The notes under the pieces: model-generated
The model's database searches: none
Told to the model about the DNA's origin: nothing
What the model saw: the letters and a program-made list of their open reading frames with translations, nothing else
Program-made: the position numbers and the translations under genes
In this document: positions 13,709 through 17,263 of the stretch, piece after piece
How the letters are laid out: the number at the start of each line of letters is the position of its first letter
How positions within the stretch are numbered: position 1 is the stretch's first letter
DNA from: a virus
Lineage: Duplodnaviria; Heunggongvirae; Uroviricota; Caudoviricetes
Length of the DNA stretch: 64,000 nucleotides
Reading direction: 5' to 3' (one strand)
IMG/VR virus record: IMGVR_UViG_3300045988_145635

Positions 13709-14302
13709 ATGATTGCAGCCGAAAAAATCAAACAGCGAAAGCGCGACAACTCTCTTCGTGACCTCTGGAGAACACCTGACTGGCTGTTTTCTGCCATTCA
13801 ACGTTATCTTGGAGTGACATTTGATGTTGACGTTGCCTGCAACAAGGACAATGCAAAGCTGCCTAATTTCATAGGCGTTGAGCGTGATGCTTTGAAATCT
13901 GAATGGGGACAGCCAGGTACAATTGCCTTCCTCAATCCACCCTACTCCAAAATCTCCCCCTGGATTGATGCGGCTATACGTGAGCAGGCTCGCGGAGTTA
14001 CAACAGTGATGCTAATTCCTCAATCCCTAGATACAAAGTGGTATGAGCGTGCAACAGAGTGTGCGAATGAGACGATTATTCTGTCTGGTGGCCGCGTAGC
14101 GTTTGTCGAGCCTGACGTCAATCTGGGTCAGGTAGAAGTAAACATCAACCCAGGTGGCAGTATGCTCGTTGTTTTTCGAGGATTCTGTCAGGACGCTGGG
14201 CACTCTATAAGCAAGATCCCTTTGGACGTCATGAAAAGTCTGGGAGGGTATGATCCTGCGAATGTGATCAGGAAAAAAAGACCATCAAAGAAGGCTGCTT
14301 AG
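13709..14302 (+). CDS. DNA N6-adenine methyltransferase (phage Dam-like)
   Basis: FLNPPYS catalytic motif in a ~190-aa protein typical of small phage adenine methyltransferases. Confidence 0.75.
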   Translation: MIAAEKIKQRKRDNSLRDLWRTPDWLFSAIQRYLGVTFDVDVACNKDNAKLPNFIGVERDALKSEWGQPGTIAFLNPPYSKISPWIDAAIREQARGVTTVMLIPQSLDTKWYERATECANETIILSGGRVAFVEPDVNLGQVEVNINPGGSMLVVFRGFCQDAGHSISKIPLDVMKSLGGYDPANVIRKKRPSKKAA

Positions 14303-14324
14303 TTTGTTCTGGCGTCTGTAATTA

Positions 14325-14381
14325 GCCTGCTTCTGTATATATAAATAACTACATATTAATTATTAATATACGGAAGCAGGC
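14325..14381. repeat. long AT-loop hairpin element, copy 1
   Basis: GCCTGCTTCTGTATATAT ... ATATACGGAAGCAGGC inverted repeat (about 16-bp stem) downstream of the Dam-like gene; near-identical copy at 45681-45736. Confidence 0.7.
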
Positions 14382-14487
14382 TGTTTTGTATCAGAGACTC
14401 CAGACCTGAACATCACTACAGAATCCACTAGAACCCCTTCCCAGACGCTTTAAAATCGATTTTATGAACCACTTTAAGGAAACCAAC

Positions 14488-14715
14488 ATGTCATACCCGA
14501 CTAATGTCGTTGCGCTCGTAGAGAGCGATTTTCTGGCCCAGGCTCGTGAAATGATGAAAGATCGTGAGCAGGCTTTCAACTTGTACGAATGGGCAATTAA
14601 GTGCTTGCATCTTGGCGAGCATCGCGAACTTGTTGAACAGCTTTTAGGTGAGTTGATCAATGAGGTGTTTGCCTTGAATGTTCAACTACATGGTAGAGAA
14701 AATAATCAATCATAA
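14488..14715 (+). CDS. hypothetical small protein
   Basis: AAGGAAA ribosome-binding site 8 nt before ATG 14488; 75 aa. Confidence 0.4.
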   Translation: MSYPTNVVALVESDFLAQAREMMKDREQAFNLYEWAIKCLHLGEHRELVEQLLGELINEVFALNVQLHGRENNQS

Positions 14716-15303
14716 TGATAGATAAGTACAAACTATTCATAAAGTGAATTGTAAGTGCTAAGATCTGATAGTTTCCAGTCGTAGACTGGAGACTCGACCT
14801 GATGGGTGGGGGTAAGCGTCACTGGCGTCAGGTTTAAAAAAAGCTCACTACCAGCGTAGAACTGGTGCCGTTTAGGTGTCGGGGAAGGGGGAACCAAAGT
14901 GAGCGGAGACAAGGGTCACTTTATGATTGTCGAGTCTGGGGTGTTTCGAGAGGTTGAATCCAGTACTCCCCTTCATAAAGTGTGGGAAGATCTCGGTTCT
15001 GGGGTGCTGTCATCCATAACTTCCCAAGTCTAAGCTGGCAGTAGACTTAGACCATAACTTTTCAGGTTATGAAACGACCAGGTTGGTGAGGGATTTTTAT
15101 ACTCACCTCCCTGGGAGAGTATTACCTGAAAAGACAACCTCTCACTTCGTTCGAGGTGAACTTCACTCACTTCGTTCGTTCAGTTCAGGTTTATAAAAAC
15201 CTGTTCTGGGAAGTAATTTGTTTATTTTAATAATTATTAACACGCACGCGTGTGCGCACGCGCGAGGAAAAAAATCGGCGCGGCGCTTGATTCAGGAGTT
15301 TAT
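14716..15303 (+). other. ORF-free structured intergenic region (candidate ncRNA or regulatory region)
   Basis: ~590 bp with no ORF of 60 aa or more in any frame; G-tracts, repeated TCTGGGGTG and CACTTCGTTCG units, and a 25-bp alternating CG/CA tract at ~15240-15268. Confidence 0.3.
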
Positions 15304-15897
15304 ATGACGACGAAGACACCAGCCCGATCGCAAGAAAAAACTCGCAAAAAAGCCAAAAACAAAAATTCTCCCCGCACCAATTCCACAACGCCTGTCGTAG
15401 AGTTCAATCCCCAGCTTAAAACCGTGAAAATCTTCAGTGATGGCTCTTGCCTTAAAAATCCGGGTGGCCCGGGCGGTTACGGTATAGTTCTCCAGTATCG
15501 TGGTGAGGAACGCGAGTTCTCAGATGGTTTTCATAGCACCACCAATAACCGCATGGAGATGATGGGGGCACTTATCGGGCTGGAGCGTTTGAAATATCCA
15601 TGCAACGTTATTTTGCACTCTGATAGCCAGTATCTGAAAAACGGCATGACACAGTGGATGAAATGGTGGAAACGCAATGGATGGATGACTTCTGACAAAA
15701 AACCGGTAAAGAATGTTGATCTGTGGAAGCGTCTGGATGAGGCCGCAAGTCGACATAATGTTCGCTGGAAGTGGGTTAAAGGTCACGCCGGGCATCGTGA
15801 AAATGAAATATGTGATCGACTCGCGAAGATCGCAGCTTTTTCCGCAGCAGATATGCCTCACAAGAAAGATATTGGTTTTGTTTACAACAAGCAGTAA
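15304..15897 (+). CDS. rnhA: ribonuclease HI
   Basis: Strong collinear match to recalled E. coli RnhA ([62 protein letters not shown]); start placed at ATG 15304 after an AGGAG site. Confidence 0.9.
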
Positions 15898-16837: not shown

Positions 16838-17263
16838 ATGTTAGGTTTATTCAAAAAGAAAACTCGTAAAGCTGTTATCGAGGTCAAAAAAATGGAGAAC
16901 CGAGATGCGGTTGAAGCCACCGTGTGGGGCGCGTACATGATCTCCTATGCCGATGGCACATGCGACGCAAAGGAAATTTCCATTCTTGAGAAAACAATTG
17001 CAGCTCTGCCTGCGTTTTCTCCGTTTGCTGGTGAGATTGCCCAAATGAGCGCCAATATCCGTGCTCAATACGAAGCCTCACCGCGCCGCGCTAATGCCCA
17101 GGCTTTACGTGAGCTGGCTGATGTGGCCGGGACTAATGATGCAGTAGATGTACTGTGTCTGTGCCTTGATATTGCCGACCAAGACGGTATTGGCGAACAA
17201 GAAGAGCTGGCCCTGAAAAAGATCGCACAGGCGCTTCAGTTGTCACTGGATGCTTATCTCTAA
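16838..17263 (+). CDS. hypothetical protein (possible TerB-like fold)
   Basis: 141-aa ORF directly after a class A motif; helical acidic protein, weak resemblance to TerB-type domains. Confidence 0.5.
   Translation: MLGLFKKKTRKAVIEVKKMENRDAVEATVWGAYMISYADGTCDAKEISILEKTIAALPAFSPFAGEIAQMSANIRAQYEASPRRANAQALRELADVAGTNDAVDVLCLCLDIADQDGIGEQEELALKKIAQALQLSLDAYL

Follow-up and report, generated by a model that had tools for sequence, protein, structure and literature searches.

A structured noncoding RNA of about 445 nucleotides is very probably encoded upstream of rnhA in SSU5-like phage-plasmids

The IMG/VR virus record IMGVR_UViG_3300045988_145635 was analyzed as one stretch of 64,000 nucleotides (nt), referred to here as the window. 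The window derives from an SSU5-like phage-plasmid with a GC content of 42 to 52% (about 46%). Among its nucleotide metabolism and replication genes lies an interval, positions 14716 to 15303, that is free of open reading frames (ORFs). The local order is a Dam-type adenine methylase gene (13709-14302), a gene for a protein of 75 amino acids (aa), the ORF-free interval, and the gene for RNase HI. An initial annotation made from the letters alone had placed this interval in an AT-rich phage, a description that the base composition does not bear out, and had suggested a structured RNA, a G-quadruplex or Z-DNA-prone element, or an origin. We are highly confident that the interval is an unannotated gene for a structured noncoding RNA (ncRNA) of about 445 nt on the plus strand, in the same orientation as every neighbor. 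The features at the locus are as follows.

14488 to 14715, plus strand: gene for a 75-aa three-helix protein, phrog_5343 (a PHROG without an assigned function), syntenic with the RNA in all lineages
14736 to 14764, plus strand: putative sigma-70 promoter, with a -35-like TTCATA (14736-14741), a 17-nt spacer, and an extended -10 element TGcTAAGAT (14756-14764)
about 14771 to 15215, plus strand: ncRNA of about 445 nt, its 5′ end set from the promoter and its 3′ end from the point where conservation stops (…UUCUGGGAAGUAA)
15216 to 15239, no strand assigned: AT-rich spacer, poorly conserved
15240 to 15264, no strand assigned: alternating purine/pyrimidine (CG/CA) tract of 25 nt, able to form a GC hairpin, length-polymorphic, and outside the RNA core
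15304 to 15897, plus strand: rnhA, encoding RNase HI (197 aa; PF00075, E = 8.5e-45), the downstream neighbor

Over the 700 bp around the interval, identity is 97 to 99% with Escherichia phages CMS-2020a, PhiR41_1, and Cyrano and 87% with Salmonella phage SSU5. About 150 copies of the element were gathered by pattern scans and by searches with the neighboring protein; individual loci are designated by L and a number. The copies form three lineages: the main one, one that is Cronobacter-like, and one represented by a single Logan contig (L107). For conservation, 2.4 kb of the window was aligned with eight relatives from five genera, and identity was scored per 50-nt bin. Positions 14801 to 15200 were 88 to 99% identical to the relatives, compared with 65 to 84% for the flanking genes, and conservation dropped sharply at about 15215. 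Conservation in related phages, which the initial annotation had named as a check, thus holds for the core, which is better kept than the adjoining protein genes. A noncoding block with this property points to function at the nucleotide level, and on this alignment the predicted RNA is under stronger purifying selection than the proteins encoded on either side.

The interval folds better than its dinucleotide shuffles (z = -6.0). RNAalifold, applied to 16 nonredundant copies, returned 99 pairs, 25 of which show compensatory double changes. A curated fold of 12 helices, including two pseudoknots, was defined in window coordinates and scored on an alignment of 18 sequences. The structural elements of the RNA, with two repeats in the 3′ domain, are listed below.

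14771 to 14793, plus strand: 5′-terminal hairpin hp0, GUUUCCAGUC-GUA-GACUGGAGAC
14796-14804 with 14826-14834, plus strand: helix H1, with the G-rich apical loop GGGUGGGGG; 4 of 9 pairs compensatory, 96.9% of cells paired
14844-14849 with 14898-14903, plus strand: helix H2, enclosing the second G-rich segment GGGGAAGGGGGAACC; 3 of 6 pairs compensatory
14917-14926 with 14973-14982 and 14932-14939 with 14960-14968, plus strand: helices H3 and H3b, whose apical loop GAGAGGUUG forms pseudoknot PKA
14948-14956 (GAGAGGUUG) with 15135-15143 (CAACCUCUC), plus strand: pseudoknot PKA, a long-range inverted repeat; 96.9% of cells paired
14983-14989 with 15020-15026 and 15002-15006 with 15011-15015, plus strand: helices H4 and H4b; 100% of cells paired, with three compensatory pairs in H4 and one in H4b
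15028 to 15052, plus strand: hairpin H5; 100% of cells paired, 5 of 10 pairs compensatory
15053-15057 with 15067-15071, plus strand: hairpin H6, whose loop (15058-15066) pairs in pseudoknot PKB
15058-15066 (CUUUUCAGG) with 15125-15133 (CCUGAAAAG), plus strand: pseudoknot PKB, an inverted repeat that encloses H7 and H7b
15078 to 15114, plus strand: helices H7 and H7b, within PKB
15141-15153 and 15166-15178, plus strand: two copies of the repeat CUCACUUCGUUCG in the 3′ domain, the first invariant except for one base
15157-15162 with 15182-15187, plus strand: helix H8, with three compensatory pairs; competes with a local hairpin over the CUCACUUCGUUCG copies
15186 to 15215, plus strand: 3′ hairpin CAGGUUU-AUAA-AAACCUG, followed by an invariant UUCUGGG at the end of the conserved block

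Standard pairs filled 97.1% of the cells of the curated fold, compared with 33 to 50% when the partners were slid out of register, and 26 pairs had changed on both sides, compared with 1 to 6 in the slid controls; neither observed value was reached by any of 500 shuffles. Overall, this was true of three of the four pairing and covariation measures. Several arms have been rebuilt as units. In the divergent copy on the Cronobacter sp. JZ38 plasmid, which is about 61 to 68% identical, complementary changes convert CACUUUAUGA/UCAUAAAGUG to CACUGUAGG/CCUGCAGUG in one hairpin and GUCUAAGC/…CUUAGAC to ACCGGGAC/…UCUCGGU in a second. The inner stem of H3/H3b reads ACCAGAC/GUCUGGU in the Cronobacter-like clade and CUGGG/CCCAG in L010 and L035, and the arms of the 3′ hairpin covary likewise (CAGGG/CCCUG in L015; CAGGGA/UUCCUUG in L035). 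Both pseudoknots show such changes: PKA has a single compensatory change, from G-C to U-A, in L107, and in PKB, CAGG/CCUG is replaced by CUGG/CCAG in the Cronobacter-like clade through a swap of A-U for U-A. Deletions are paired as well, since in L107 one C-G pair of PKB is missing from both strands together and H2 is shortened on both strands in a coordinated manner. By comparative analysis, the predicted fold is kept through compensatory substitutions and paired deletions in at least 10 helices plus two pseudoknots. Many unpaired positions are near-invariant across genera and long unpaired stretches are fully invariant, and short motifs recur within the RNA (UCUGGGG two or three times and CUCACUUCGUUCG twice). 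RNAalifold also proposed that the G-tract GAUGGGUGGGGG pairs at long range with CCUCUCACUUCGUUC; this pairing showed no covariation, competed with the supported H1 and PKA, and was excluded from the curated fold.

The pairs also reveal the strand. The curated pairs contain 138 G·U cells but only 17 A·C cells, and this excess indicates that the folded molecule corresponds to the plus strand. When the fold was read on the minus strand, pairing fell from 97.1% to 89.9%, and the minimum free energy was -210.8 kcal/mol for the plus strand versus -173.4 kcal/mol for the minus strand, a difference of about 37 kcal/mol. The only promoter-like site on the minus strand (14777-14748) is directed away from the element.

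On the plus strand, the putative promoter would start transcription at about 14770 to 14772, and hairpin hp0 follows directly. Of 68 distinct upstream variants, nearly all have the pattern TGnTAnnAT at the same distance, while the surrounding sequence diverges. A generic promoter scan missed this site because only 8 of 12 consensus positions match. Since the promoter is weak in consensus and unlisted by the scan, the case for it rests on its conservation and on expression: published transcriptome sequencing (RNA-seq) signal steps up at the promoter relative to the upstream gene. The sequence of hp0 varies by lineage, and a hairpin is nearly always found at the same place, with a predicted stability of about -6 to -21 kcal/mol.

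Expression of the element is documented for Cyrano, a phage-plasmid of Escherichia coli LF82 whose corresponding segment is 97% identical. The segment contains a 44-aa "hypothetical protein" ORF, CYRAN_81 (OV696614.1, record positions 78657-78791; L002:3249-3383), which was published as a "moron" expressed in lysogeny (PMC9928086). CYRAN_81 was 12-fold above the prophage background in LB (PMC9928086, Table 1). Over five conditions, its log2 value of FPKM (fragments per kilobase per million) plus 5 ranged from 6.8 to 10.35, with the peak at 6 h inside macrophages, while values for the flanking CYRAN_80 and CYRAN_82 (rnhA) were 2.6 to 5.8 (PMC9928086, S1 Table). Depending on the condition (lysogens, in culture and in macrophages), the segment gave approximately 10- to 40-fold the signal of either neighbor. 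The RNA-seq coverage called for by the initial annotation thus exists in published form and places the element far above both neighbors; such a signal would be expected of an abundant and discrete RNA in lysogens. Among other genes in this data set, the "hypothetical protein" gene CYRAN_43 was 723-fold above the prophage background, and CYRAN_98, which encodes a LexA-like S24 peptidase, reached a log2 value of 12.3 in macrophages (PMC9928086).

The annotation of a 44-aa ORF in one phage record, and the counting of its reads as those of a moron, raise the alternative that the interval holds a small protein gene (CYRAN_81) or the mRNA of a hok-type type I toxin. We give this alternative almost no credence. 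As the initial annotation had stated, no ORF of 60 aa or more is contained in the interval: the longest ORF wholly within 14716 to 15303 has 59 aa (minus strand, 14733-14912), and the sole ORF of at least 60 aa touching it is that of rnhA when its frame is read from an upstream GTG at 15250. In relatives, the internal ORFs, including CYRAN_81, lose their start codons and acquire stops and frameshifts, and substitutions are distributed over the three codon positions as 123/121/104, with no third-position bias. The homologs reveal no conserved peptide, and there is no hydrophobic toxin-like peptide among the internal ORFs, which, disrupted as they are, also lack the character of a hok/sok-type toxin mRNA. 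Because the CYRAN_81 ORF is not conserved, its expression signal most likely belongs to the ncRNA; judged from these comparisons, CYRAN_81 is a spurious ORF.

The compositional features noted in the initial annotation are all present. G-runs occur at 14804-14812 (GGG-T-GGGGG), at 14881-14891 (GGGG-AA-GGGGG), and at 14938 and 15001 (GGGG each). Two short repeats are found twice each, CTCACTTCGTTCG at 15141 and 15166 and TC(G/T)(A/G)(G/T)TCTGGGGTG at 14930 and 14993. The alternating purine/pyrimidine tract (15240-15264, ACACGCACGCGTGTGCGCACGCGCG) is exactly 25 nt long and is the longest in the window, where the next has 15 nt. G-runs, tract, and direct repeats could together mark an element that acts as DNA, whether a G-quadruplex, a Z-DNA-prone tract, or a protein-binding origin or partition site, but the comparative data make this highly improbable. 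A regular-expression scan of both strands with loops of up to 20 nt found no G-quadruplex motif, and the G-runs are broken in two of the three lineages (GGGTGGAGG, GGGGAGAGGGAGAA), with interruptions in the Cronobacter-like, Klebsiella, and L107 copies. The CG tract lies outside the conserved RNA and is not itself conserved, with 8 to 12 nt deleted in the close relatives L005 and L009 and most of it gone in L003. Taken as bare short motifs, the repeats occur in the 64-kb window at a frequency expected by chance, yet they are conserved in relatives. With regard to an iteron- or DnaA-type origin, the interval contains just these two-copy repeats, with no iterons, GATC cluster, or GC-skew inflection, and the plasmids carry an IncFIB RepA replicon as assigned by plasmid typing. 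The compensatory changes and the 138:17 ratio of G·U to A·C cells favor a single-stranded plus-strand molecule instead. Among the possibilities first raised for the interval, the structured RNA thus has strong support, from pairs that covary, from a G·U excess specific to one strand, from conservation of the promoter, and from published expression data, while the G-quadruplex, Z-DNA, and origin proposals are set aside.

Homologs of the alternating tract in L003 to L011 differ in close relatives by indels of 8 to 12 nt whose lengths are not divisible by three, and the Cronobacter sp. JZ38 plasmid lacks the tract. Rather than a conserved signal, the pattern suggests instability through slippage or hairpin formation.

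The position of the element upstream of rnhA was correctly noted in the initial annotation; its relevance appears incidental, since several relatives have the element but another gene in place of rnhA. L003, L008, and L009 all retain the RNA with other genes after it, so by synteny rnhA is not an obligatory partner. These comparisons bear on the possibility that the element acts in cis, as a leader, processing, or antitermination element of a rightward early operon that controls read-through into rnhA or supplies RNase III/E sites, the RNA-seq signal being a stable product of decay or attenuation. The element does share the orientation of its neighbors, and no canonical intrinsic terminator was found after the RNA or between it and rnhA. 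The approximately 15- to 40-fold fall in RNA-seq signal from the element to rnhA is what attenuation predicts, the 3′ domain has mutually exclusive pairings that might serve as a switch, and a second structured region found at the same site in other plasmids (type 2, described below) has a terminator-like U-run hairpin within a long stem. We nevertheless regard a cis-acting role as unlikely. The downstream gene, which would be constant for an rnhA leader or riboswitch, varies. It is rnhA in most relatives, but L003, L008, and L009 have unrelated ORFs there, and in type 2 the loci L101 and L102 have a gene on the reverse strand. Conservation in the region is also lowest in the spacer that separates the RNA from rnhA. 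In addition, 445 nt with two pseudoknots and near-invariant loops is far above the size of known bacterial leaders or put/EAR-type antiterminators.

The start of rnhA itself is placed at ATG 15304, preceded by the ribosome-binding site AGGAG at 15294-15298. Several records set it at an upstream GTG or TTG, including L004 (SSU5_090, 2001-2765), L011 (rnhA, 1960-2628), and the window ORF 15250-15897. The over-extended coding sequence crosses the CG tract and overlaps the 3′ portion of the RNA. The ATG equivalent to 15304 is used in other records, and the long versions are probably misannotated.

Searches for known RNAs did not identify the element. The 4227 covariance models of Rfam 15, which include GOLLD, ROOL, OLE, raiA, 6S, CsrB/C, RNase P, group I and II introns, C4, and RNAI, gave no match in the whole window at the gathering score. 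At E ≤ 10 over 14300-15500, only weak chance matches to microRNAs (miRNAs) and small RNAs, far below threshold, were obtained. The RNA family search advised in the initial annotation thus matched no known family, consistent with an unannotated RNA. ARAGORN found no tRNA or tmRNA in the window, RefSeq/PGAP annotation had nothing at this place in any of the 30 records listed among the 232 complete E. coli genomes that carry the element, and no description of it was found in the full-text literature.

By its features, the RNA resembles the large ornate bacterial ncRNAs, a descriptive kind and not a homologous family, in that it exceeds 400 nt and has many covarying helices, pseudoknots, and conserved unpaired positions. 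GOLLD and ROOL are often found in prophages, and OLE works with small partner proteins encoded nearby; OLE, ROOL, and GOLLD are larger than this RNA. Like these RNAs and raiA, the element is several hundred nucleotides long, rich in helices and pseudoknots with conserved unpaired nucleotides, and phage-borne, and as with OLE, a gene for a small protein, here the 75-aa helical one, is always immediately adjacent, upstream of the RNA. It differs in showing no sequence or structure match to the Rfam families of these RNAs and in its hosts, which are phage-plasmids of Enterobacteriaceae. The RNA is a new family within the large ornate kind, placed there by resemblance, with no detectable homology. 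A study by cryogenic electron microscopy describes GOLLD, ROOL, and OLE as forming homo-oligomers (PMC12286853).

The 75-aa protein was modeled by AlphaFold as a three-helix bundle with a predicted local distance difference test score (pLDDT) of 80. The model had no fold match in the PDB at E < 8, and the protein matched no Pfam or PADLOC family; its sole family match was the PHROG without an assigned function, so that the protein gave no clue to a role.

Two comparisons concern replication. ColE1 RNA II is about 550 nt long and primes from a plasmid origin; the element resembles it as a structured, plasmid-borne transcript of about 0.45 to 0.55 kb with G-rich segments and an adjacent RNase HI gene, expressed in the plasmid state. 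Extrachromosomal prophages of mycobacteriophages have RNA-based replication origins in phages without repA (PMC7157519), and the element likewise is an ORF-free transcribed segment of a plasmid-prophage. It could accordingly be imagined as a primer or R-loop origin RNA, in which a G-rich transcript hybridizes to its template near the AT-rich spacer and is processed by RNase HI to prime DNA synthesis. Its size, high degree of structure, and G-runs, the AT-rich stretch and then rnhA directly downstream, the location in a nucleotide metabolism and replication block, and the precedent of prophage RNA origins are all in keeping with such a role. Several observations make this reading quite improbable. 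At E ≤ 10, no gene for an RNA I-like antisense transcript was detected, and rnhA is dispensable for retention of the RNA (although host RNase HI could stand in for it). The G-runs are broken in two lineages. A primer-to-DNA transition would lie in the 3′ flank (15216-15300), which is variable in length and more weakly conserved than the rest of the region. The replicon is typed as IncFIB RepA, without a GC-skew inflection, and the type-2 region is not G-rich at its 5′ end. From the mycobacteriophage origins, the element differs in that SSU5-like elements carry repA, and there is no sequence relation.

The immunity RNAs of P1/P7 (c4) and P4 (CI) are about 70 to 80 nt long and work through short stretches complementary to sites in their own genome. 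The element is like them in being noncoding and expressed by a plasmid-prophage in lysogeny, but it has no Rfam C4 match and no complementary target in the 64-kb window: an antisense-target search of the RNA against the rest of the window gave only chance matches of at most 12 nt.

At the same site in 30 Klebsiella plasmids (e.g., Klebsiella oxytoca pCAV1099-111, NZ_CP011594.1), a second, sequence-unrelated structured noncoding region of about 480 nt was found. In these type-2 loci (L096:2795-3243, L097, and L099 to L103), a small-protein gene whose product is 51% identical is followed by the noncoding region and then usually by an RNase H gene, although the downstream gene is replaceable, as in the two loci with a reverse-strand gene. 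The type-2 region has a conserved promoter-like TTTACT-17-TATGAT with a hairpin directly after it, and 153 predicted pairs, 15 of them compensatory. The internal terminator-like hairpin with a U-run inside its long stem is a point of difference from type 1. Neither nhmmer nor a covariance model of the type-1 middle domain detected similarity between the two types, and the type-2 loci had no Rfam match. With an unrelated structured region in the same slot, the locus looks like a cassette position for large structured RNAs.

A further arrangement was seen on the Moellerella wisconsensis plasmid NZ_CP129024.1 (L098:3178-4149). In this distant relative, a 113-aa ORF comes directly after the small helical-protein gene, and the next 970 bp, up to a type I restriction gene, contain no ORF. 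The 970-bp region matched neither the type-1 nor the type-2 RNA.

The element is widespread in its replicon family. In PLSDB, 687 plasmids match, from Klebsiella, Escherichia, Enterobacter, Salmonella, Citrobacter, and Cronobacter, and nearly all of them are nonmobilizable; the SSU5-like plasmid records sampled are about 100 to 120 kb. The element is single-copy and was carried by 232 of 5,426 complete E. coli genomes (4.3%). A degenerate 21-mer scan of metagenomes identified 57 contigs with the element; the other 8 of the 65 loci were unrelated chance matches, and no new deep lineage appeared. The only matches in an exact 23-mer scan of genomes were on phage-plasmid contigs of Kluyvera and Buttiauxella, apart from one in Acidobacteria that overlaps a ribosome-binding site and was taken as chance.

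Some apparent copies require separate comment. The invariant 23-mer ACAACCTCTCACTNCGTTCGAGG also occurs in two IMG/VR contigs (L029:6307-6329 and L056), within a 442-aa replication-organizer-like ORF and with no other similarity, and this was likewise judged a chance match. On this unrelated phage contig, several CAGTGAG repeats lead up to the 23-mer, which forms a hairpin locally and has GTGCGCGCACG after it; the context may be origin-like. The apparent divergent homolog L109 (a Logan contig from SRR8137545) is a C-to-T, bisulfite-type converted assembly of the same locus and was discarded; essentially every C in it reads T, a trap for automated collection of homologs. In Buttiauxella gaviniae NZ_LXEP01000001.1 (L092:4880-5150), the RNA copy is truncated at its 5′ end, begins in the 3′ strand of H2 (…CAAAGTGAGCAGAGAG), and is fused to an unrelated GC-rich, apparently coding sequence. 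This junction looks like a recombination breakpoint inside the element.

Other features were noted around the RNA. Straight after the Dam methylase gene, positions 14303 to 14409 form a long AT-rich perfect hairpin (AGCCTGCTTCTGTATAT…ATATACGGAAGCAGGCT), which gave weak chance matches to miRNA precursors in Rfam and is probably a terminator. Right behind the stop codon of the 75-aa gene (14716-14740 in the window), every lineage has a short palindrome of differing sequence (GGTAAGTACTTACC, AAATAGCnnnnnGCTATTT, and AATATGTA…TACATATT; TAAGTAAnnnnTTACTTA in type 2), which could be a hairpin ending the upstream mRNA or an operator before the RNA promoter. Small accessory genes lie downstream of the RNA, including one with a weak Tad2-like (PF11195) match in an Enterobacter contig (L105:4105-4416) and TerB/TciA-like genes at about 16838-17263 of the window; the RNA may thus sit at the edge of a variable accessory or antidefense region. 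Farther away, at about 29 to 31 kb in the window (offset from the PhiR41_1 record), the phage-plasmid encodes a methionyl-tRNA synthetase.

As to what the RNA does, a trans-acting scaffold or regulatory RNA is our tentative preference. A trans-acting scaffold is favored because the unpaired nucleotides are near-invariant, motifs recur, and the small helical protein gene is always adjacent, three features that also fit a ribonucleoprotein (RNP) or an RNA rich in tertiary structure. Under this model, the RNA's own weak-consensus promoter with its extended -10 element would drive constitutive transcription, the transcript would begin with a protective 5′ hairpin, and a stable, discrete RNA would accumulate. 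The folded RNA would then act in trans, most likely as a protein-binding or self-assembling scaffold, and would serve the plasmid-prophage state through maintenance, lysogeny control, or manipulation of the host. It would not act as a DNA structure, as an rnhA-specific leader, or as a replication primer.

Several points weigh against this interpretation. The scaffold mechanism is itself something we infer. No partner or target supports it, and no complementarity was found in the rest of the 64-kb window or, at blastn sensitivity, to the E. coli chromosome; E. coli chromosomes had no similarity or complementarity to the RNA at E ≤ 0.01, apart from two chromosomal full-length copies in one strain. 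Because there is no canonical terminator, the RNA could be processed from a longer mRNA and persist as a stable product, and the ends of the transcript are placed from the promoter (5′) and from conservation (3′). The Cyrano RNA-seq signal is used without strand assignment, its origin from the plus strand being presumed. Within the fold, several helices of the 3′ domain (15141-15203) have mutually exclusive alternatives, each with partial support, and covariation derives from only the three lineages, so that many of the double changes are single events shared by rows of the alignment. With the existence of the gene and its mechanism considered together, we hold the overall reading with moderate confidence.

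A more far-reaching proposal is speculative but has a substantial chance of holding. The element may represent a previously unrecognized class of RNA rich in tertiary structure, which could be self-assembling, catalytic, or the core of an RNP with the 75-aa protein. It would be expressed in lysogeny, including within macrophages, for maintenance or host control, and the nonhomologous type-2 region in the same slot would make the locus an exchangeable "RNA cassette."

Clinical E. coli, Klebsiella, Enterobacter, and Salmonella commonly harbor SSU5-like phage-plasmids, which can carry resistance genes. The best-conserved stretch of the region in these elements is an unannotated RNA, not a protein gene, and in one transcriptome, that of Cyrano, it is among the stronger lysogen loci. 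The annotation is corrected accordingly, with CYRAN_81 as a spurious ORF and the rnhA starts of SSU5 and some plasmids as over-extended. Large ornate bacterial RNAs are rare, and past ones were ribozymes, RNP cores, or unusual assemblies. A new one in a tractable host could make the function of such RNAs directly testable, the candidates being phage PhiR41_1, whose record names E. coli K-12 MG1655 as host, and Cyrano in LF82, and the type-2 region at the same locus suggests that this function is modular and exchangeable.

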